DNA of 64,000 nucleotides from Candidatus Aenigmatarchaeota archaeon (GCA_043824495.1 JBDRSV010000010.1:41995-105994), one strand, 5' to 3'. Shown: positions 14,539 through 30,803, counted from the first letter of the stretch. The notes: generated by a model not told the origin, from the sequence alone. Numbers and translations: made by a program.

Positions 14539-15573
14539 ATGTATGAAGATAAGCCAATAATCAAGAATTCAGAAGTCTTTACAGACGAATTTCTCCCAAA
14601 CACAATTAACCATAGAGATGGGCAAATGAAAGCAGTGAGAGATGATCTAAATCCACTTCTAAATAATAAACCAGGAAGAAGCGTGTTCATTTTCGGTGCT
14701 CCAGGGACAGGAAAGACTTCAACATCTAAATACATAATAAATGAGCTAGCTTCACAGTCTGTTTTTACAAGTTACATAAATTGTTGGAATACGAGTTCAA
14801 GATTCAAAATATTATACACAATTCTTCAGAATTTTGGAGAATCTCTGTCTATACACACAAAAGGAACTCCAACGCATGATCTTTTAGAATTACTTAAGAA
14901 AAAAGTCCAAGAAAAACAAGCAGTGATAATCTTAGATGAAGTGGATCAATTAGAAGATGATAAAATTTTGTATGATTTAATTATGATAGCAAATGTTAGT
15001 GTAATTCTAATAGCTAATTCAGAAACAGCATTACATGACAATGATCCTAGAATAAGAAGTAGATTAGCGTCTGCAGATACAATAGAATTTCCTAAATACA
15101 AGTCAGATGAAATAACAGAGATACTCAAAGAAAGAGCAGAACTAGGTCTAGTTCCTGGTGTTGTGAAAAATGCACAACTAGAGAAAATAGCAGAGAGATC
15201 TTTAGGTGATTCTAGAATTGCAATTAATATTCTTAAAATAGCTTCGGAAGAAGCTGAGAAAAAAGATGAAGGAAAAATAACCGATGATGACGTAGAGAAA
15301 GCTTCTCCAAAAGCGATAGAACAAGGAAAGAAAAAGAGTATAGAAACATTGAATGATCACCAGAAATTGATATACTCTGTAATTAGTATGGGTGTCAAAA
15401 CAGAACCTTCTGAACTATACACAAAATATCAAGAAGAGTGTAAAAGAAAAGATATAGAACCTGTGAAAGACAGAACAATCAGAAAATATTTAGACAAAAT
15501 GATACAATATAAGTTAATTCTAGCTGAAGGCGAAGCTCGTTGGAGAACTTATTCTATCCAGAAAGCGCAATAA
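14539..15573 (+). CDS. cdc6: Orc1/Cdc6 family AAA+ initiator
   Basis: GAPGTGKT, YINC, LDEVD and RIRSRL motifs; C-terminal winged helix. Confidence 0.92.
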   Translation: MYEDKPIIKNSEVFTDEFLPNTINHRDGQMKAVRDDLNPLLNNKPGRSVFIFGAPGTGKTSTSKYIINELASQSVFTSYINCWNTSSRFKILYTILQNFGESLSIHTKGTPTHDLLELLKKKVQEKQAVIILDEVDQLEDDKILYDLIMIANVSVILIANSETALHDNDPRIRSRLASADTIEFPKYKSDEITEILKERAELGLVPGVVKNAQLEKIAERSLGDSRIAINILKIASEEAEKKDEGKITDDDVEKASPKAIEQGKKKSIETLNDHQKLIYSVISMGVKTEPSELYTKYQEECKRKDIEPVKDRTIRKYLDKMIQYKLILAEGEARWRTYSIQKAQ

Positions 15574-15616: not shown

Positions 15617-16429
15617 TTGGCATACTGGCATACTGGCACGGTCCTAGGATCCAGTTTATATCTGATGAAAATCTACTCTAAAGTGATCCCTATGCGTCTA
15701 GTACCCCAACTCTTAGATAAAATCGAACCCTTCGTTGATGAATTTAGGCAGTGGCCTAAAGGAGACATTCCTTCTTCCAAAGAAGGTAAGTGGCTTCAAG
15801 TTCAAATGTCTCAATTCACACCACCTTTTGTCATTGAGAAGAATTATGAAAATAGTTTCATATCTTCTTCACATGTGGTAGATACAGAATTACTTGATGC
15901 TACCTTGAAGAGAAAAACAAATCTTCTCTCCAAGCAAGAAATAAGAATACTTATTGGTTCAACAAAAAACTTGAAACATAAAATATTATTACAACTATTG
16001 TATGGTTGTGGTCTTCAGATATTCGAAGCTATTGAGCTAAAGATAGATGACATCAACCTGAAAGAGTGTAGAGTCAACGTAGGAACGAGAACAGTTCCTT
16101 TATCAACAAAAATGGTTCCACAACTGGAATTCTTGTTTAGATACACACAAAAACCAGATAATAATCACCTGTTTCCCAACTGGAACGGAGGTCACGTAAC
16201 ACCAGAAGATGCAGAACAGATCGTGAAATATGCATTCGCTGCTGCTGGGTTGAGACCAGTTTCCCCACACGCTCTTAGACACAGCTTTGCTTCACACCTC
16301 CTCGAATACGGCGTCAGAATAGGAATAATACAAACACTTCTAGGAAATTATGATGCAACAAAAATGAGACACATGAAAATTTCAGAAGAAATGATCAAGA
16401 ACGTGAAGAGTCCTCTGGATAAACTTTAA
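15617..16429 (+). CDS. Catalytically degenerate tyrosine recombinase paralog
   Basis: YGCGLQIFE (R to Q), GKGxKDR hairpin missing, HALRH kept, LLGNY (H to N), no nucleophile Tyr, ends KSPLD. Likely start ATG 15665. Confidence 0.8.
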   Translation: MAYWHTGTVLGSSLYLMKIYSKVIPMRLVPQLLDKIEPFVDEFRQWPKGDIPSSKEGKWLQVQMSQFTPPFVIEKNYENSFISSSHVVDTELLDATLKRKTNLLSKQEIRILIGSTKNLKHKILLQLLYGCGLQIFEAIELKIDDINLKECRVNVGTRTVPLSTKMVPQLEFLFRYTQKPDNNHLFPNWNGGHVTPEDAEQIVKYAFAAAGLRPVSPHALRHSFASHLLEYGVRIGIIQTLLGNYDATKMRHMKISEEMIKNVKSPLDKL

Positions 16430-16436
16430 TTTTCAT

Positions 16437-16655
16437 ATGAGTCACAAAATCATAAGATATAGCAAACATACCATTAGAAGAAAATTAGAAAGAAACATTT
16501 CAGAAGAAGAGATAGAAGAAACAATCAGAAACCCTAATTATGTTTTATCTTCATTTGAAGAAAGAAAAATAGCTGTTAAACAAATAGCAGAAAGAACTAT
16601 TCATGTAATCTACAATGAGGAAAAAACCCATATAAATATAATAACCGTATATTAA
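16437..16655 (+). CDS. DUF4258-like putative toxin
   Basis: YSKH...ERNISEEEIEETIRNP...HVIY...IITVY pattern. Confidence 0.75.
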   Translation: MSHKIIRYSKHTIRRKLERNISEEEIEETIRNPNYVLSSFEERKIAVKQIAERTIHVIYNEEKTHINIITVY

Positions 16656-16662
16656 ATGTAAT

Positions 16663-16869
16663 ATGAAAATGACATATGACAAAGAGGTGGATGCAGCATA
16701 CATTTACCTAAAAGACACAATAAAAAAAGGCGAAGTAAAAAGCACACAAACCATGAACGAAAACATCATCCTAGACTTCGACAAAGATAAAAAACTCATC
16801 GGAATCGAAATTCTTTCTGCAAGTAAAGTAATACCCAAAAAGTCAGTAAAAGCACTACAAACAGCCTAG
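16663..16869 (+). CDS. DUF2283-like putative antitoxin
   Basis: TYDKEVDAAYIYL...ILDFDKDKKLIGIEIL pattern. Confidence 0.85.
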   Translation: MKMTYDKEVDAAYIYLKDTIKKGEVKSTQTMNENIILDFDKDKKLIGIEILSASKVIPKKSVKALQTA

Positions 16870-16889: not shown

Positions 16890-17726
16890 ATGAAAGAACT
16901 CTTAATACGCTTGGAAAATGAACTAAAATCTCGCGGCTTCAGCAGAAAGACCGTAAAATCCTATTTATTTCACGTTTCAACTTTCTTGCGTCACATATCA
17001 ACAGATTCCACACAAGAAGAGATACAAAGATATTTCATACAATTAGCAGAAAACGCAGATCCCAGAACAGTTAATCTGCGCATAAGCGCAGTTAAATTCT
17101 TTTACAAGAACATCCTACACAGAAACCTCTACATAAACTACATGAAGAGACCCAGAAAAATACCTGAAGTTTTAACTGTACAAGAAGTCATGTATATGAT
17201 ATCGTCCACGACTAACCCAAAACACAGAACTATAATTGAAATGTTATACGGCTGTGGACTCCGGGTATCAGAAATAACTAAAATAAAAAAATCTGACATA
17301 AACATTCCAGAAAGAATAATATTCATAAGACAAGGAAAGGGAATGAAAGACAGAATTGTTCCTCTTCCTCTTACACTAAAAGAGATTGTATATAATTTCA
17401 GTGTAGACGACTGTCCATATGTTTTCCAATCAGAAAGAGGAGGAAAGCTAACGGAAAAAACAATACAGGTGATAGTGAAAAATGCAGCCAAGAAAGCCGA
17501 AATAAAAAAGCGCGTATCTCCACATACTCTCCGTCACAGCTATGCAACCCATCTCCTCGAATCAGGAACAGATATTCGTATAATTCAACGTCTTCTAGGT
17601 CATTCCTCGGTCAAAACCACAGAACTCTATACTCATGTTTCAAGAGCTCTTCTGAAAAACATAAAAAGTCCTCTAGACTTCGTAAAAACATTCAATATAG
17701 AACATTCTAATCCAAACAATGCGTAG
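16890..17726 (+). CDS. Intact tyrosine recombinase (Xer/IntI-related, SAM-like N-domain, no IntI-specific insertion)
   Basis: RGFSRKTVKSY; YGCGLRVSE; GKGMKDR; HTLRHSYATHLLESGTDIRIIQRLLGHSSVKTTELYTH; KSPLD. The full R-K-H-R-H-Y set is present. Confidence 0.95.
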   Translation: MKELLIRLENELKSRGFSRKTVKSYLFHVSTFLRHISTDSTQEEIQRYFIQLAENADPRTVNLRISAVKFFYKNILHRNLYINYMKRPRKIPEVLTVQEVMYMISSTTNPKHRTIIEMLYGCGLRVSEITKIKKSDINIPERIIFIRQGKGMKDRIVPLPLTLKEIVYNFSVDDCPYVFQSERGGKLTEKTIQVIVKNAAKKAEIKKRVSPHTLRHSYATHLLESGTDIRIIQRLLGHSSVKTTELYTHVSRALLKNIKSPLDFVKTFNIEHSNPNNA

Positions 17727-17741
17727 AAACACTAGTTATAA
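17715..17741 (+). other. Putative attI-like primary recombination site (crossover G17735|TTATAA)
   Basis: GTTATAA lies 8 nt after the integrase stop. It starts a repeat also found at the array end and is the exact complement of the first downstream R'' (TTATAAC, 19693). Confidence 0.45.
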
Positions 17742-17798
17742 GAAATCGTTGGTCTTGATTGGTTAAAGGAGATCGCCGCCATTTGGCTTCGCCAAAGA
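17735..17798 (+). repeat. Direct repeat copy 1 (64 bp)
   Basis: GTTATAAGAAATCGTTGG[TCTTGATTGG]TTAAAGGAGATCGCCGCCATTTGGCTTCGCCAAAGA; identical to 21584-21637 except for the bracketed 10 nt. Confidence 0.95.
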
Positions 17799-17929
17799 TA
17801 GCCTGCCTTCGGCAGTATATAGAAAGGGTATTCTTTGTTTTCGAGGACATAGGGAAGTAGTACTCATAAATGGGCATAATAAAGATTAAAAATAACACAA
17901 CACCTATATACTACTAAGGGATTGATAAT

Positions 17930-18851
17930 ATGAATCAAATAGAAATTAATAGAGAAAATCTTGAAAAGAGACTTAAGCAAGTAGGGCTTAGTTCAGATAT
18001 ATACAGCGTCAAACCAAAAAAATTTATTAGAATTAATACGAGACATCCAGTGAAAATAAGAGAATTACAGGAAAGACTTAATAGAAATTATGGAATCGAA
18101 GTAGAATTTATAGAAACATGTATTGAGGAAATTTATGAATCAACAAACTCGGATATTGGAGGGTGGATTAGTGGTAAAAAGAACGAATTCTTTAATAAAA
18201 ATTATTTTATTCAAGATTTAGCAAGCGTTATTTGTGTTAAAGAACTTGATTTAAAAGAGGGTCAATCTCTTCTTGAAACATGTGCAGCGAGAGGTTTCAA
18301 GTCTATTCTGGCTCATGATTTAACACATGGAAAATTAAGAATAACAGCATTAGATATAGATCCTAAAAAAATATCAAATAATGATGGGATTCTTTAAAAA
18401 ATTTGGAATAAATGCAGAAACCCGATTAATGGATTCCACAAAATTTCAAGGTCAAAAATACGATAGAGTACTGGTTGATGCTCCTTGTTCTGGTGAAGGT
18501 GTGACTGTGGTGTATGATGAGAAATTGAGAAGAGATGTTAGTGGATTTGATAATGTTGTGCAATATTCACAAGAAGATGTTGAAAGATTTTCAGAATTAC
18601 AAGGAAAACTTTTACAAAGCGGTTTTGACCACTTAAAGAAGAGTGGAATCCTAAATTACGCCACCTGTACCTTGAATAAGATTGAAAATGAAAGCGTAAT
18701 CCACGAATTTCTTCAAAGAAACGGCGATGCTTCAGTTGTTAACTCTAATATTGATAAATATGGTATCAAGCACAAGGTTTCTAATCTAGGGGTAAGAATC
18801 TTGCCTGGAAAAACTAAGGGCTTTTACTTTACAAAAATTATAAGGAGATAA
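17930..18851 (+). pseudogene. RsmB/NOP2-family m5C methyltransferase split by a +1 frameshift in an A7 run
   Basis: ORF1 has ETCAARGFKS and ALDID; ORF2 has VLVDAPCSGEG and YATCTLNKIENE. Removing one A from 18365-18371 gives DPKKYQIMMGFFKKF and fuses the ORFs. Confidence 0.85.
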
Positions 18852-18883
18852 TCTTCAAAAGAAGACAAAGAATCTATCACCGA

Positions 18884-19216
18884 TTACCTTGTCCTAAAAC
18901 CAAACCTTTTTTCATAATTCTTGTGGTCTAGCCATTCTAGAATAATTGCGATGACTTCAATCTTGTCCCTTCCAAGAGAGTATAATAATCTCCACCCATT
19001 TGGTAAATCATACTTCCAGAGATTGTCTATTCCATATTTCTTGATATATTCCTTTGGAATCAGTTTTTGTTTTATATGAATGAAAGCATTCGGATTCTTC
19101 TCAATTTCCTTAAAGGCGTTGCTTATACTATCATATAACCATTTCTCTCCAGGAGAATCCTTAAGATTGTCATACGCCTTCTTCACATTTTCGTCTGCGA
19201 AAACTAATCGTGTCAT
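18884..19216 (-). CDS. RelE/ParE-like putative toxin
   Basis: LWKYDLPNGWRLLYSL and DHKNYEKRFG; overlaps the upstream gene (ATGA). Confidence 0.7.
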   Translation of the reverse strand: MTRLVFADENVKKAYDNLKDSPGEKWLYDSISNAFKEIEKNPNAFIHIKQKLIPKEYIKKYGIDNLWKYDLPNGWRLLYSLGRDKIEVIAIILEWLDHKNYEKRFGFRTR

Positions 19217-19491
19217 TTAATCAACAGATGTGGTTTACTCATGTACTTCTTTACAAGTTCTGGATTCCAAATCCAAACTACATGTCCTTCTTTGTCTGTG
19301 ACAATCTTACCTGAATCCATAAGGTAATCGAAAACTACACAGAATGTTTGGTACATCATTTTCTTTGGGAGATGTTCCCAAAGCTGCCTTTTCTTGTACT
19401 CTCCACTGTTATTTTTGATAAACTTCTCTACCATAAGTACAGTATCCAACTGTGGATAATGCAAAATTCCTTTCTCCATTAATTGTGGCAT
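19213..19491 (-). CDS. Small wHTH-like putative antitoxin/regulator
   Basis: 92 aa, translationally coupled to the toxin-like gene; preceded by a GGTGA RBS and a palindrome. Confidence 0.55.
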   Translation of the reverse strand: MPQLMEKGILHYPQLDTVLMVEKFIKNNSGEYKKRQLWEHLPKKMMYQTFCVVFDYLMDSGKIVTDKEGHVVWIWNPELVKKYMSKPHLLIK

Positions 19492-19499
19492 AAAATCAC

Positions 19500-19525
19500 C
19501 TTGTTATATATATTTATATAACAAG
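19500..19525. promoter_or_regulatory. Perfect inverted repeat, candidate TA operator
   Basis: CTTGTTATATA-TATT-TATATAACAAG (11-bp arms) directly upstream of the 19491 start. Confidence 0.6.
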
Positions 19526-19801
19526 TATTTATAAAGGTTTCGGTTGAGCCTAAAACATATCATAAGACAAAGAATCTCGTCCGCGGCGGCGATCTCCTTT
19601 ATTAGTTATGTGCACAACGACTCTGCGGCTGCTTCGCAGCCTTGCCTCGCATGGCGAAACCATTTCAGAATAGGAGAAATCCATGCTCGGTCTTATAACA
19701 AGCAGCTTGGCGGTTCGCTGCTGCTCTCCCAAATTCGATCTTTGCTATGAAGGCGGTCTCTTAAAACTAAAACATTTATAAACTGGATACAAATTATTGT
19801 T

Positions 19802-19999
19802 ATGAGCGAATTGAAGATGCATGGAAAACACCAAACTCAATGGGTTACTATATCCCTTGATGAATATGAGAGCATGAAGGCTACTCTCGAGATTTTATCT
19901 AGCCCTAAGGCGATGGAGAAAATTAGACGCGGTGAACAGGAAAGACTAGCTGGAAAGGGGCAGAAACTAGAAGATGTGAAGAAAGAACTTGGAATTTAG
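19802..19999 (+). CDS. Phd/RelB-like antitoxin
   Basis: ISLDEYESMKATLEILSSPKAMEKIRRG pattern. Confidence 0.75.
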   Translation: MSELKMHGKHQTQWVTISLDEYESMKATLEILSSPKAMEKIRRGEQERLAGKGQKLEDVKKELGI

Positions 20000-20250
20000 A
20001 AATCATCTTTATGTAATATAGTATCTATTTGAACTAATTTCTCTTTTTCAATGATTACGTAGATGATTCTCCATCGCTTTTCAAATCTTAATTCCCACTT
20101 TCCCACCAGAGGCCATCTTAGTGGCTTACCATAAATATCTGGATATTCCTTTAACTTTTCAATTTTCTTGAAAAATCGTCTTTGCATTTCTGCATCAAAT
20201 TTCTTCAGATCCTTCTTGGCCTCTGGCATTATCTCGATATCATAACTCAT
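19996..20250 (-). CDS. RelE/StbE-family toxin
   Basis: AKKDLKK...GKPLRWPLVGKWELRFEKRWRIIY. Confidence 0.85.
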   Translation of the reverse strand: MSYDIEIMPEAKKDLKKFDAEMQRRFFKKIEKLKEYPDIYGKPLRWPLVGKWELRFEKRWRIIYVIIEKEKLVQIDTILHKDDF

Positions 20251-20334
20251 GAAATATAATTAAATTCTATACTAATAAATCGGCCGCCCTTTAAAAGACC
20301 GGACTTTGCCAACCTGCTGATGTTAAATAACATA

Positions 20335-20889
20335 TTACTCGGCAGACCGCATTTTGAATTCAGAATCTAAAATACTCATTATCAAATCATTGTAAAACTT
20401 CCCATCTATATAGGCGTTGTCTCTGAGAATCCCATCCACCTTGAAGCCGCATTTTTTATAAGCGGCAATTGCTCTTTTATTGAAATCTAAGACAACTAAG
20501 CTGATTTTATGGAGTTTTAATTGTATAAATCCGAATTTTAGAATGCAATTAATTGCATCGGTTCCATATCCCTTTCCGAAATAGTCTTGAAGAATTCCTA
20601 TTGCTAATCTGACATTTTTATCTTGTTTATTGATTTGATGGAGACGACAACTTCCAATATATTTGTTATCTGATTTTTTGATGATAGCAAATGACAATTC
20701 CGATTTCTGAGCAATTGCCTCTTTGAATCTTTCTTTTACTTTATTTAGTGGGGTAGGTTTCCATTTCTTTGAGCCTCCACACATTATAGTGAATTCTTTG
20801 CTTTCTCTTGTCTTTGCAAAATCTTTGAAATCGGATTCATGTAACTGTCTGATATAAACATTATCCCCATTAATTTTTGGAAGTTTCAT
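20335..20889 (-). CDS. RimJ/RimL-type GNAT N-acetyltransferase (cassette 1, reverse orientation)
   Basis: YIGSC, FGKGYGTDA, NKRAIAAYKKCGF and DGILRD motifs. Confidence 0.9.
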   Translation of the reverse strand: MKLPKINGDNVYIRQLHESDFKDFAKTRESKEFTIMCGGSKKWKPTPLNKVKERFKEAIAQKSELSFAIIKKSDNKYIGSCRLHQINKQDKNVRLAIGILQDYFGKGYGTDAINCILKFGFIQLKLHKISLVVLDFNKRAIAAYKKCGFKVDGILRDNAYIDGKFYNDLIMSILDSEFKMRSAE

Positions 20890-20987
20890 GTATTTTAGTG
20901 GATTTTAGAGGTTATATGATTAACGGTCTGCCTCCGTCATACGCTTCGTCGCTTCGCTCCTCGGTCTCAAACCAAGGTTTTCGACTT

Positions 20988-21070
20988 ATTTAACAGAAGT
21001 TTAAAGGTTCCGCTACGCTGCACCCACATTTTTTCTAAAAGAAAAACGTCTTATAACCCTAACGTTAAGT
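20988..21070 (+). other. attC-like site B (83 bp)
   Basis: R'' ATTTAAC, 5 nt, L'' TTTAAAG, internal hairpin TTTTTCT/AGAAAAA, L' CTTATAA, 7 nt, R' GTTAAGT. Confidence 0.75.
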
Positions 21071-21093
21071 GAAATTGCTACGAGCAAATTTAA

Positions 21094-21528
21094 ATGTCTA
21101 TTCTCTTTACATTAATTATGGTTGATTTTATCAGAAAGAAATCCGAAAAGCCCACATTTTCACAGAAAGGGCTTGATGGATATCAATTTCTTTTAGAAAA
21201 CAAGAATGTAGAAGTATATTTCGTGGACGTGAAAATGGGGCATGATAATTACATTATTAGTAAAAAAATTACTCACATCTATTTTGTTATAGAAGGCGAA
21301 GGATTTTTCGATATAAGCGGAACTAAATTTGATGTTAAACTTGGAGATTTCATAGAAGTTCCGCCAAATAAGGAATATTGTTATTCAGGAAAAATGAAAT
21401 TGTTACTTATCATGAACCCGCCGTGGTTTGAAGGAAACGAAGAGATTACTAAGAAAAATCTTCTGTTGAATAGTTTGCCCTCCGCAACTCTCCCTTCGGT
21501 CGTCACGGATCACTTAACAAAAGATTAA
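21094..21528 (+). CDS. Cupin-domain protein (cassette 2)
   Basis: THIYFVIEGEGFF...GDFIEVPPN; the stop codon falls inside the L'' box of attC site C. Confidence 0.8.
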   Translation: MSILFTLIMVDFIRKKSEKPTFSQKGLDGYQFLLENKNVEVYFVDVKMGHDNYIISKKITHIYFVIEGEGFFDISGTKFDVKLGDFIEVPPNKEYCYSGKMKLLLIMNPPWFEGNEEITKKNLLLNSLPSATLPSVVTDHLTKD

Positions 21529-21590
21529 GACACTCACTACGTTCGTCCTAATTTCCTAAAGGAAACTAGTCTTAACCTCGAATGTTATAA
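21512..21590 (+). other. attC-like site C (79 bp)
   Basis: R'' ACTTAAC, 5 nt, L'' ATTAAGAC, hairpin CTAATTTCCT/AGGAAACTAG, L' GTCTTAAC, 7 nt, R' GTTATAA. Confidence 0.85.
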
Positions 21591-21637
21591 GAAATCGTTG
21601 GTTAAAGGAGATCGCCGCCATTTGGCTTCGCCAAAGA
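21584..21637 (+). repeat. Direct repeat copy 2 (54 bp)
   Basis: Matches 17735-17798 and begins exactly at the GTT of the attC-C R' box. Confidence 0.95.
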
Positions 21638-21675: not shown

Positions 21676-22983
21676 ATGAGTTGGAAATACAAAGTGCTTC
21701 AGCATAAGAATTTACTCTCCGTTCTTATGATAGTAGCGGTTGTTGTGATCAGTGGATGTACAACTCAACTCGAACCTACACCAACACCAGAACCAATTCC
21801 TACTCCAGAACCGGCACCTGAACCAGAAATTATAAATCAAAAACAAGTTACTTTAGCAAATGGAGTTATTGAAGCAAATAGCCTATTTGCATCAGATATT
21901 TATGATAAATACAAATCAGAAGATGGAAATCTATTTTTCTCACCTTATAGTATTTCATCTGCACTGTCAATGACTTATGAGGGAGCAAAAGGACAAACAG
22001 CAGAAGAAATACAGGCGGTCTTACATTTGCCTGATGATAAAAACAAAATACGTACTGATTTTAAGAGTATTAACAATGAACTTAATAAAGCAGACAAAAC
22101 CTATAAACTAACTACCGCAAATGCTTTATGGGCTGAAGAAGACTATGTTTTTGTTGATGAATATTTTAATGTTGTTGATGAATATTATGATGGAGAGGTA
22201 AATAATCTTGATTTTAAAACAGAAACAGAAAATTCTCGTGTTGCAATTAATGACTGGGTTGAGGATAAAACTAATGATAAGATAAAAGACCTTATTCCAG
22301 CAGGAACGCTTAATAGTGCTACAAGATTAGTTCTAATAAATGCCATCTACTTTAAAGCTAATTGGTCAAGTCAATTTGATGCAAGAGATACTTGGGACGG
22401 AAAATTTAAATTGAGCTCCGATCAAAGTGTTGATGCTAGAATGATGTATCAAACTAGCAATTATAGCTATGGTGAAACAGATAACCTTCAAATATTGGAA
22501 ATGGGTTATCTTGGAAATGATCTTTCGATGTTAATAATTCTCCCAAAAGAAAATAATATAACTCAAATAGAAAATAATTTTAGTATAGAAAAACTTGAAG
22601 ACTGGAAGAATGATATGCAAACCGAAAAAGTAAGAGTTGCATTACCAAAATTTAAGTTTGAAACAAAATATTTTTTAACTGAATATTTAAAAGAAATGGG
22701 AATGCCTTCTGCTTTCAAATATCCTGATGCTGATTTTACTGGAATGAGTCCTACTGATGAATTATTTATTAGTCAGGTGATACACCAAACTTTTATAGAA
22801 GTTGCTGAATATGGGACTGAGGCAGCTGCTGCAACATCAGTATTTGTGGGAGCTGGAAGCGCTGGTCCAACAGAAGAACCCAAGTATTTCACAGCAGACC
22901 ATCCATTTATATTTATAATCCAGCAGAAGGATTCCGGGAATATTTTATTCATGGGAAGAATGAGTGATCCAACTCAAGAATAA
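21676..22983 (+). CDS. Secreted/lipoprotein-like serpin
   Basis: VVVISGC lipobox-like sequence; PTPEP linker; FFSPYSI, NAIYFKANW; hinge EYGTEAAAAT; FTADHPFIFII. Confidence 0.95.
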   Translation: MSWKYKVLQHKNLLSVLMIVAVVVISGCTTQLEPTPTPEPIPTPEPAPEPEIINQKQVTLANGVIEANSLFASDIYDKYKSEDGNLFFSPYSISSALSMTYEGAKGQTAEEIQAVLHLPDDKNKIRTDFKSINNELNKADKTYKLTTANALWAEEDYVFVDEYFNVVDEYYDGEVNNLDFKTETENSRVAINDWVEDKTNDKIKDLIPAGTLNSATRLVLINAIYFKANWSSQFDARDTWDGKFKLSSDQSVDARMMYQTSNYSYGETDNLQILEMGYLGNDLSMLIILPKENNITQIENNFSIEKLEDWKNDMQTEKVRVALPKFKFETKYFLTEYLKEMGMPSAFKYPDADFTGMSPTDELFISQVIHQTFIEVAEYGTEAAAATSVFVGAGSAGPTEEPKYFTADHPFIFIIQQKDSGNILFMGRMSDPTQE

Positions 22984-30484: not shown

Positions 30485-30803
30485 ATAATTTCTTTTTGAA
30501 TTAAATACAATGGATACTTCAACTTTTATTTCCTTTGGAACCCCAGAGAGAGATAATTTCTTCTACTAACCCACATAGCCAGAGCGTTCCTGATTCTTTG
30601 TATAATCCGTCACTCTTTATAGTCCTGGCCAGAACCGGCTCCGTAACAGAACACACAGCCGGAGAACCCTGAACTATACGCCTGTTCATAGACGAAGCCA
30701 TATAAAATATGTGCTGATGACATGAAATTCAGCAGTGACAGCTAGTAAGCAGAGAAGAAAACTGAAACTGTGGTGAAATCTTGAGTGAACAAGCTACTGA
30801 ACA

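Follow-up and report, generated by a model that had tools for sequence, protein, structure and literature searches.

A candidate integron-like gene-capture locus served by a XerA-family recombinase in a Candidatus Aenigmatarchaeota archaeon

Positions 16,890 to 21,637 of the 64,000-nt stretch of Candidatus Aenigmatarchaeota DNA analyzed here (the window; GCA_043824495.1 JBDRSV010000010.1:41995-105994) hold a tyrosine recombinase gene followed by a row of structured sites and genes, and raise the question of whether an enzyme without the IntI-specific insertion serves an integron-like cassette array. The original prediction proposed an archaeal integron-like platform run by a non-canonical integrase family. 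The family of sites, the rule that joins each cassette start to its own R'' box, the linkage of the enzyme to arrays and the absent insertion support this proposal, within which catalysis by the enzyme is the step that we infer. As read from the sequence, the locus is probably a small sedentary integron-like gene-capture system in which a XerA-family recombinase without the I2 insertion would work at its own attI. The features of the locus are listed below.

16890..17726, plus strand: intact tyrosine recombinase gene, archaeal XerA type, 278 aa (NF040815, TIGR02249, PDB and Pfam)
17727..17746, plus strand: attI-like junction, aaacacta followed by GTTATAAGAAAT (same junction in G071 and ~30 family members)
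17735..17850, plus strand: leader repeat copy 1, long form, beginning exactly at the putative crossover
17736..20322, plus strand: cassette 1, 2.6 kb, atypical (ORFs and Pfam)
17930-18397 and 18381-18851: RsmB/F-like methyltransferase split over two frames, in cassette 1 (Pfam)
18884-19216 and 19213-19491, minus strand: two-gene pair in cassette 1 (ORFs and Pfam)
about 19545-19692: GC-rich module before R'', in cassette 1
19693..20328, plus strand: split attC-like site, 636 nt (read from the sequence, with Pfam for the enclosed genes)
19802-19999, plus strand: Phd-like gene in the hairpin-2 loop of the split site (Pfam)
19996-20250, minus strand: ParE-like gene in the same loop (Pfam)
20323..21064, plus strand: cassette 2
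20335-20889, minus strand: GNAT acetyltransferase gene in cassette 2 (Pfam PF13302, E 2.5e-20)
20988..21070, plus strand: compact attC-like site, 83 nt, ATTTAAC-5-TTTAAAG-hairpin1-CCCACAT-hairpin2-CTTATAA-7-GTTAAGT
21065..21584, plus strand: cassette 3
21094-21528: cupin-like ORF in cassette 3 (weak Pfam Cupin_2 match, 24.4 bits against a cut-off of 27.2)
21512..21590, plus strand: compact attC-like site, 79 nt, ACTTAAC-5-ATTAAGA-...-TCTTAAC-7-GTTATAA
21584..21637, plus strand: leader repeat copy 2, short form, closing the array (direct-repeat comparison)

The predicted sites, 7-nt matches and direct repeat were all confirmed. The three sites share an R''(7)-5-L''(7)...L'(7)-7-R'(7) arrangement, and in three of three cassettes the start is the exact complement of the cassette's own R'' box (GTTATAA 17735-17741 with TTATAAC 19693-19699, GTTAAAT 20322-20328 with ATTTAAC 20988-20994, and GTTAAGT 21064-21070 with ACTTAAC 21512-21518); the R' box of the same site matches R'' worse than the cassette start does. 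The left half of the split site consists of R'' TTATAAC, the spacer aagca, L'' GCTTGGC (19705-19711) and CCCAAAT (19728-19734), the hairpin-2 arms are CGGTCTCTTAAA (19754-19765) and TTTAAAAGACCG (20290-20301), and the right half holds L' GCCAACC (20308-20314), the 7-nt spacer tgctgat and R' GTTAAAT (20322-20328), with L boxes that are complementary at 6 of 7 positions. One hairpin loop of this site encloses the whole toxin-antitoxin pair, and a comparable split site in G038 encloses a reverse gene. The compact sites have the spacers agaag and ccctaac with L boxes 5/7 complementary (20988..21070), and aaaag and ctcgaat with L boxes 6/7 complementary (21512..21590).

Taken by itself, the window gives a weak signal. 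The loose site geometry is not enriched in the genome (54 matches vs 65-91 in shuffled genomes), and as single-stranded DNA the compact sites fold no better than shuffles (z +0.4 and -0.7); the site at 21512..21590 pairs its R and L boxes in the minimum-energy fold of the bottom strand, at a z of only -0.7. The array signal is significant only with relatives. With a covariance model that we built from four sites, we detected 59 sites in tandem same-strand arrays. Model R2 places sites in 33 of the 91 order genomes and in 35 of the 151 genomes sampled from the class. Across the 0.9 Mb that flank 80 homologues from bacteria and other archaea, it returns only one marginal match. Tandem arrays on one strand hold nine (G081:C9), six (G079:C65) and five (G094:C15) sites. 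The genome studied here, a small archaeal one, has only one such array, likewise small, in which the site at 20988..21070 scores 81.4 bits with model R1 and 70.8 bits with R2, being a training member of both, and the site at 21512..21590 scores 64.3 and 50.7 bits; the split site at 19693..20328 is beyond the model's detection in the own-genome search.

The complementarity of cassette start and R'' generalizes statistically beyond the window. The four variable nucleotides of R'' are exactly complementary to the R' of the preceding site in 16 of 35 neighboring pairs, compared with 6.3% of random pairs and 8.5% of same-site pairs (binomial p = 7e-11; 8e-10 when the training arrays are left out). 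Over the site family, pairing reaches 95% in the L box and 83% in hairpin 2 with many double changes, and the covariation score is 0.43 against 0.14 for shuffled and ≤0.13 for slid alignments, the alignment behind these counts having been fitted to the model. Across the 59 sites AAC and GTT hardly vary, and pairing is poor in the outer three R pairs, as would be predicted for an R' that derives from the neighboring cassette. The right arm, TTAnnnSMAAT, has a length of 11 nt, R'' is preceded by a GC-rich module of several hairpins, and CTTCGG and GCTTCGC motifs, equivalent to UUCG loops at the RNA level, abound in the sites. On the top strand, hairpin 1 has 31 G.T against 3 A.C, an excess that fits top-strand or RNA folding and not the bottom-strand folding of classical attC; which strand folds is something that we infer. 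A near-identical site is common to G008 and G026, genomes of different families. Applying the definition of an integron sensu IntegronFinder / Messier and Roy, we find the imperfect R''-L''...L'-R' palindrome with AAC/GTT ends and a structure conserved over sequence, as well as cassette starts that complement their own R''; the canonical attC details differ, with spacers of 5 and 7 nt and L boxes without a bulge.

The predicted lack of the IntI-specific insertion in the recombinase holds. The protein scores 225.8 bits against the curated NF040815 XerA_Arch profile, above the cut-off of 220, and 208.6 bits against the IntI profile TIGR02249, below the cut-off of 265, and the latter aligns in two stretches that skip profile positions 174-235. 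V. cholerae IntI4 (PDB 2A3V) also matches in two stretches, its residues 172-240 being replaced by only 24 residues (162-185) of the recombinase, while XerA 4A8E (PDB) is colinear over the whole protein at 161 bits. By alignment to the IntI model and 2A3V, ~45 residues of the IntI insertion are missing, and with them the I2 helix, that is, the additional domain around patch III by which IntI is defined. Pfam recognizes Phage_int_SAM_4 and Phage_integrase domains. An archaeal XerA would be a near-universal single-copy gene in its lineage, and this family occurs in 35 of the 91 order genomes and in 12 of the 23 that are ≥90% complete; G031 has two copies, with a junction at each. The profile search for a true intI found none at the locus, and none over the cut-off either in the 80% complete genome studied here or among 91 genomes of the order. 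Three further tyrosine recombinases are encoded in the genome (C24, C15, C29).

The crossover would lie between G17735 and T17736, 8 nt past the stop codon of the recombinase gene. At the same place the closest homologue (G071, 54% identity) has CACTA followed by GTTCTATTCAAT, and GTTAnnnSMAAT stands beside the recombinase gene in ~30 family members or homologue loci. In five divergent loci, the 7 nt past the junction are the exact complement of the R'' of the first site. The sequence evidence points to an attI beside the integrase gene, with the crossover between the G and the TT of GTT. The direct repeat (17735-17798 and 21584-21637) measures 54-64 nt with one 10-nt indel, and the full 107-116 nt leader recurs elsewhere in the genome at 96% identity (G000:C4:29600-29706), preceded there by a palindromic core; a search of the other 90 order genomes found no copy of the leader repeat. 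Leader copy 2 corresponds to what should follow an attI on its right after cassette insertion; the array ends with it, and a chromosomal serpin gene begins at 21676.

The recombinase gene points toward the array, as had been predicted, with the array downstream in its reading direction; this co-directional layout is one of two among relatives, many of which have the classical divergent one. A homologue lies within about 2 kb of a site in ten genomes, co-directionally in G000, G038 and G026 and divergently in G081, G072, G073, G008, G059, G047 and G049, and contigs often break off right on the side on which an array would be predicted. The family is present in 35 and the sites in 33 of the 91 genomes, and 21 have both (odds ratio 5.5, related genomes not being independent). 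Sites also occur in 12 of the 56 genomes in which no full-length family member was found, and all 12 are incomplete MAGs. The only other assembly, Logan SRR26275509, has the same gene order.

The cargo is cassette-typical, as claimed: Pfam finds the GNAT, the cupin (weakly), the Phd/ParE pair and the RsmB/F methyltransferase in two frames, and GNAT, cupin, ParE, Phd and RsmB/F are among the archaeal integron cassette families of Ghaly 2022 (Data S7, PMC9668308). Gene orientations within the array are mixed. The GNAT gene is flanked by GGCAGACCG (20342-20350) and CGGTCTGCC (20925-20933). Cassette 1 comprises the leader, the split methyltransferase, the minus-strand gene pair, the GC-rich module and the split site; homologues of its 92-aa ORF lie directly after the integrase in G027 and G035, and a 17-nt inverted copy of a leader motif is present at 19585-19601. 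Several features count against the integron-like reading: this cassette is a block of 2.6 kb that contains a frameshifted gene but lacks an internal site, and one site is split by 530 nt.

The XerA type of the enzyme could also suggest duplex Xer/dif-type modules (IMEX / Acinetobacter pdif), in which R''-5-L'' and L'-7-R' would be double-stranded cores and the hairpins would arise incidentally from the inverted orientation of the sites. In its favor are the weak folding energies, an 11-nt right arm like that of a Xer site, and junctions that resemble inverted-arm duplex cores (ATAAC-gcat-GTTAT in G038, TATAAC-acctt-GTTATA in G000:C4). However, the L boxes vary between sites while remaining complementary within a site and the two inner hairpins covary, neither of which a dif-like duplex needs; moreover, the 9-nt central region at L'-R' (C + 7 + G) is long for a duplex core, and the R'' rule is the expectation for a folded attC. 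We consider this explanation unlikely, and judge it likewise unlikely that the array is real but served in trans (CALIN), for instance by a canonical IntI supplied from a different cell or element, or by one of the genome's other tyrosine recombinases. IntI is absent from most archaeal arrays in Ghaly 2022 (PMC9668308), and the three other recombinases and the 12 genomes with sites but no full-length family member agree with service in trans. Against it stand the adjacency of gene and sites in ten genomes in two fixed layouts, the attI-like junction beside ~30 family members, where the first cassette obeys the R'' rule, the lack of any IntI over the cut-off in the 91 genomes, and sites unlike the canonical attC that IntI1 was shown to recombine.

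It is improbable that 17735-21584 is one integrated element without independent cassettes, inserted by the adjacent integrase with the direct repeat as attL/attR. The repeat does begin exactly at GTT on both sides and its third copy follows a palindromic core, but the integrase lies outside the repeats, the family of the internal sites forms arrays elsewhere and each site obeys the cassette rule, and repetition of the sequence right of attI at the array end is expected for an integron-like array as well. A role of the GC-rich structures as RNA (terminators, stability or processing signals) instead of recombination sites would suit their position after ORFs, the UUCG-type motifs and the G.T excess on the sense strand of hairpin 1. 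Nevertheless, it leaves the cassette-start rule, the attI-like junctions beside the recombinase and the site common to G008 and G026 unexplained, no Rfam family matches at the locus, and we regard it as highly improbable.

Among known systems, integrons share with this locus a recombinase gene beside an insertion site, a row of cassettes ending in imperfect inverted repeats with R''/L''/L'/R' boxes, AAC...GTT ends and a 5-nt R''-L'' spacer, a crossover between G and TT, from which the complementarity of cassette start and own R'' follows, and a cargo of TA pairs, GNAT, cupin and methyltransferases; divergent and co-directional layouts both occur among them, including the sedentary chromosomal, Treponema 'reverse' and archaeal ones (PMC9668308). 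The locus differs in its XerA-type enzyme, an L'-R' spacer of 7 nt instead of 6, an L box without an extrahelical base, an inner two-hairpin junction with a conserved CYCAAAT linker, an R' extended to GTTAnnnSMAAT, the GC-rich module before R'' and genes that can sit in a hairpin loop, whereas Ghaly tested archaeal attC sites of the canonical kind known from bacteria (PMC9668308). Archaeal integrons as a group are already published (Ghaly 2022, PMC9668308); the Xer-type integrase with this site architecture is unpublished, and we found no paper describing an integron-like array that combines them. The archaeal XerA/dif system (P. abyssi XerA 4A8E, T. acidophilum 5HXY; PMC3646895) provides the best and colinear sequence match, but the patchy distribution of the family and its ~30 loci with an attI-like junction, many of which adjoin arrays, are not the behavior of a universal housekeeping resolvase. 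Acinetobacter pdif modules / IMEX (PMC7399989) likewise consist of accessory genes between Xer-type sites that alternate in orientation, but pdif are conserved 28-bp duplex sites on plasmids, whereas the sites here are structured with covarying inner boxes and a junction next to the recombinase gene anchors their arrays.

In the integron-like mechanism that we favor, three cassettes would have accumulated at an attI directly beside the gene of the XerA-family recombinase, with the crossover between G and TTATAAGAAAT. Each cassette would end in a structured site, R''(nnnnAAC)-5-L''-hairpin1-CYCAAAT-hairpin2-L'-7-R'(GTTAnnn), and the next would open with the conserved SMAAT. Strand exchange at the 5' edge of R', presumably catalyzed by this recombinase, would excise and insert cassettes, and an excised cassette would take along the last bases of the preceding R' box, which is why its start would complement the R'' at its own far end. 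The substrate may be single-stranded; the site is probably recognized as a folded single strand or cruciform, by analogy with integron attC and the folded attP that XerCD uses in phage CTX. The locus may still be active.

Phage CTX provides the case of a Xer-type enzyme that lacks an I2 helix and recombines a hairpin of two inverted half-sites with a duplex site; Val et al. reportedly found in 2005 that XerCD integrates the phage through a folded single-stranded attP with two inverted dif-like sites. It differs from the locus here in being a phage genome and not a cassette array, in using two recombinases and the host dif, and in having no row of sites and no cassette rule. By this precedent, a plain Xer enzyme is capable of such chemistry. 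The system would work like an integron and yet, as judged from its sequence, fall outside that class in two features, the IntI domain and the canonical attC details, with a recombinase that lacks the additional domain on which integron recombination is considered to depend.

The window covers G000:C10:41995-105994 in a 1.01-Mb archaeal assembly (~35% G+C, 29 contigs, 80% complete), and its 278-aa recombinase gene is preceded, in order, by genes for PAP2, Orc1/Cdc6, a 270-aa recombinase paralogue and a DUF4258/DUF2283 pair. The recombinase gene is followed by a methyltransferase gene split between two frames, two minus-strand genes forming a pair, Phd-like and ParE-like genes, a minus-strand GNAT gene and a cupin-like ORF, and beyond the array lies a serpin gene that is chromosomal in appearance. 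The features of the locus, in window positions, are as follows.

14539-15573 (+): Orc1/Cdc6 gene, just upstream of the recombinase pair
15617-16429 (+): 270-aa recombinase paralogue, an open frame 460 nt upstream of the recombinase
16437-16869 (+): DUF4258 (BrnT-like) and DUF2283 genes, between the two recombinase genes
16890-17726: 278-aa recombinase
17735-17798 and 21584-21637: direct repeat bounding the array, opening exactly at GTT
17736-20322: cassette 1
17930-18397 and 18381-18851 (+): RsmB/F-type methyltransferase in two overlapping frames
18884-19491 (-): 92-aa and 110-aa gene pair, preceded by the palindromic promoter region ttgttatatatatttatataacaa
19693-20328: split first site
20988-21070 and 21512-21590: compact sites of 83 nt and 79 nt

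Because the Orc1/Cdc6 gene lies just upstream, the array may sit close to a replication origin. The DUF4258 and DUF2283 genes are probably a toxin-antitoxin pair, DUF2283 being one of the archaeal integron cassette families in Ghaly 2022 (PMC9668308). The split methyltransferase looks like a frameshifted cassette gene. The 92-aa/110-aa pair had no match in a Pfam search; in two related genomes, G027 and G035, the gene directly after the recombinase encodes a homologue of the 92-aa protein and has a similar promoter. The array region contains no match to Rfam families, and no tRNA or tmRNA that could be the target of the direct repeat was found in the window. Elsewhere in the window, at 30616-30802 (+), we noticed an RT-16 RNA (RF03019; 66.6 bits, gathering score 50), a reverse-transcriptase-associated RNA.

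When read against the sequence, all coordinates of the original prediction proved correct, as did the geometry that it had assigned to three attC-like sites, R''(7)-5-L''(7)...L'(7)-7-R'(7). In all three cassettes, the opening 7 nt exactly complement the R'' at the cassette's own far end, which we call the cassette rule; the R' physically adjacent to each R'' is a poorer fit, matching 1 to 3 of the 4 variable positions. The first site is split over 636 nt and has all the elements of the compact sites in the correct order: R''-5-L'', a weak hairpin 1, the linker CCCAAAT (19728-19734), the arms of hairpin 2 (19754-19765 and 20290-20301, 11/12 complementary) and L'-7-R'. The Phd-like and ParE-like genes occupy the loop of its hairpin 2. 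A comparable split site in the related genome G038, ACATAAC-5-CTAACAG ... CTGTTAG-7-GTTATAT, has L boxes that match at 7/7 positions and a reverse gene inside. A third and longer copy of the leader that opens at 17735 lies on another contig of the source genome (G000:C4:29578-29706, the copy starting from 29600; 107 nt, 96% identical), with the near-perfect palindromic core GTATAAC-ACCTT-GTTATAA just before it and with neither a recombinase nor an attC-like site nearby. It might serve as a secondary insertion site, or cassette 1 may have come from it. The leader is restricted to the source genome, which ruled it out as a conserved element.

By itself, the window is statistically not convincing, because a loose scan for the geometry gave 54 matches in the source genome against 65-91 in shuffled genomes, and the two compact sites folded as single-stranded DNA with energies no better than those of shuffled sequence. 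We therefore dropped both the simple pattern scan and the folding energy as evidence, and the argument is carried by related genomes. Downstream of the homologues in G038 and G026, an attI-like junction is followed by cassettes with 7-5-7...7-7-7 sites that keep the cassette rule. Aligning four sites revealed two inner hairpins with a conserved CYCAAAT linker between them, a feature missing from the original prediction. A single site used as a plain DNA query against other genomes found its sister site only. Covariance models built from four sites (R1) and eight sites (R2) recovered sites outside the training set, with matches in 33 of the 91 genomes of the order and in 35 of 151 sampled across the class. 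The matches are usually in tandem on one strand, 450-1000 nt apart, for example nine in G081:C9, six in G079:C65 and five in G094:C15, and the inner parts of a G008 site and a G026 site, from genomes of different families, are nearly identical.

Among the 59 sites, the four variable bases of R'' and the R' of the site before it are exactly complementary in 16 of 35 neighbouring pairs, compared with 6.3% of random pairs and 8.5% when R'' is set against the R' of its own site (binomial p = 7e-11, or 8e-10 without the training arrays). The nine G081 sites contain six such exact links in all, five of them consecutive. A match of this kind is the classical signature left by cassette exchange through a crossover at the 5' edge of R', and the statistic is independent of the modelled structure. 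In the alignment fitted by the model, pairing reaches 95% in the L box and 83% in hairpin 2, double changes are numerous, and the covariation score is 0.43, compared with 0.14 after shuffling and ≤0.13 after sliding. Pairing is often missing in the three outer R pairs, which would follow if R' derives from the neighbouring cassette. The R' consensus is GTTAnnnSMAAT, with AAT nearly invariant at +9 to +11, and its TTAnnnSMAAT portion is 11 nt, the same length as a Xer binding arm.

Hairpin 1 carries 31 G.T and 3 A.C mismatches on the top strand of the 59-site alignment, and the other helices show no G.T bias if the basal A.C of hairpin 2, which is constant, is excluded; this hints that hairpin 1 folds on the top strand or in RNA. 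Most R'' boxes in the 59 sites are preceded by a GC-rich module of 60-90 nt (in the window, for example, 20925-20987 and 21470-21511), which is crowded with CTTCGG, GCTTCGC and ACTTCGT mini-hairpins, reading GCGAAGC on the bottom strand and as UUCG loops in RNA, and is partly conserved among genomes of different families.

The recombinase and the arrays are linked. Ten genomes have a family member within ~2 kb of a site, in a co-directional layout in G000 (the source genome), G038 and G026, and in a divergent layout, as in classical integrons, in G081, G072, G073, G008, G059, G047 and G049. About 30 family loci in the order carry the junction /GTTAnnnSMAAT (the slash marks the junction) in three forms. 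It stands directly after the stop codon in G000 and its closest relative G071 (CACTA/GTT...) and in G038, G043, G045, G051, G004, G026, G005, G053 and G055; at 15 loci it lies ~90 nt upstream of the start and follows a conserved TTCGCTTT...TAATAGKT; and in G013, G016 and G067 it lies upstream, after an inverted repeat ending in GCAT. At five divergent loci, the R'' of the first site is exactly complementary to the 7 nt past the junction, and contig ends often fall exactly on the side where the array is expected. Sites occur in 21 of the 35 family-bearing genomes and in 12 of the 56 without the family, an odds ratio of 5.5 obtained from related, hence non-independent, genomes and incomplete MAGs.

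The recombinase itself scores as archaeal XerA: it reaches 225.8 bits against NF040815 (cut-off 220) and aligns colinearly with P. abyssi XerA at 161 bits, and its closest named relatives are in Nanoarchaeota and Pacearchaeota MAGs. The match to the IntI model is under the cut-off and falls into two pieces, skipping profile positions 174-235, and residues 162-185 take the place of residues 172-240 of V. cholerae IntI4, so that ~45 residues, the insertion holding the I2 helix, are absent, which bears out the predicted lack of the IntI insertion. No IntI above the cut-off was found in the 80% complete source genome, and none (TIGR02249) in the 91 genomes of the order, in a search where the positive control also gave no match. 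In a quick tree, the family forms three co-directional subclades and one clade of divergent layout, and the recombinase of the window pairs with that of G071; the tree contains no IntI or XerC/D outgroups and does not give a position relative to IntI. The 270-aa paralogue retains HALRHSFASHLL and a KSPLD tail. With GLQ for GLR, LLGN for LLGH, no KGxKDR loop and no tyrosine at the nucleophile position, it looks catalytically dead.

Could this family simply be a chromosome resolvase? Homologues at 40-54% identity are present in just 35 of the 91 genomes of the order, so the family is too patchy to be a universal housekeeping resolvase. A short tyrosine recombinase of ~190-215 aa, comprising the catalytic domain only (G000:C29:29327-29968 and many genomes of the order), occurs also in genomes lacking the XerA-like family and could be the actual housekeeping resolvase. 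A broad homologue search in species genomes returned mostly Xer-like genes of bacteria and other archaea with housekeeping genes after them, and R2, applied as a negative control to the 0.9 Mb surrounding 80 of these homologues, gave one marginal match. This bounds the reach of the claim, which we confine to this archaeal class and do not extend to ultra-small bacteria. An IS200/IS605-type or MITE reading was rejected because it predicts neither the cassette rule nor the attI junction.

Our inferences extend to the activity of the recombinase, the circular intermediate, whether the substrate is a single strand or a duplex, and which strand reacts. Given its small size, one frameshifted gene and a first cassette without internal sites, the locus may be a fossil. 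An exact-protein look-up for strain variation found one other assembly of the population, with identical gene order and no record for the serpin. Unitigs break at 17788, 19595 and 19705, but taking these positions for recombination junctions was not justified.

Ghaly 2022 (PMC9668308) described integrons in 75 archaeal MAGs, with 539 attC sites and only six IntI, each with the IntI domain, and with attI immediately downstream of intI. The attC sites tested there follow the canonical bacterial pattern: R''-5-L'' carries an extra base, and the other side is L'-6-R'. The present sites have another spacer length and no bulge, and contain the two-hairpin junction with its linker. Literature searches turned up no account of cassette arrays in these archaea that are linked to a Xer-type integrase. 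The original prediction of an integron-like platform run by a non-canonical integrase is supported by the site arrays, the cassette rule and the enzyme-array linkage in relatives. The locus appears to work like an integron, yet is not a strict member, the IntI domain and the canonical features of attC both being missing.

The ability of integron integrases to recombine folded single-stranded attC is attributed to their acquisition of the I2 helix (PMC7790495; Messier and Roy 2001, cited in PMC9668308), and Escudero 2020 (PMC7790495) presents this helix as the innovation that made single-strand recombination possible. The chances seem to us evenly balanced that a XerA-like clade without this helix, never gained or lost, runs true cassette capture class-wide in these small-genome archaea through folded sites of its own design, which would comprise the two-hairpin junction with its CYCAAAT linker, the 12-nt extended R' and a tolerance of genes in the hairpin loop. 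If so, either the integron principle would have been invented independently here or a pre-I2 stage of integron evolution would have survived, and the clade would supply the missing enzyme for the integrase-less cassette rows of the lineage. A linked enzyme without I2 questions how necessary I2 is and makes a natural system in which to test how integrons arose from Xer recombinases; enzyme and sites are compact enough for direct assays in E. coli. Integron searches based on the integrase overlook a class-wide system, and a concrete candidate enzyme and attI can now be named for the cassette rows of ultra-small archaea, whose acquisition of genes by horizontal transfer is otherwise difficult to account for.
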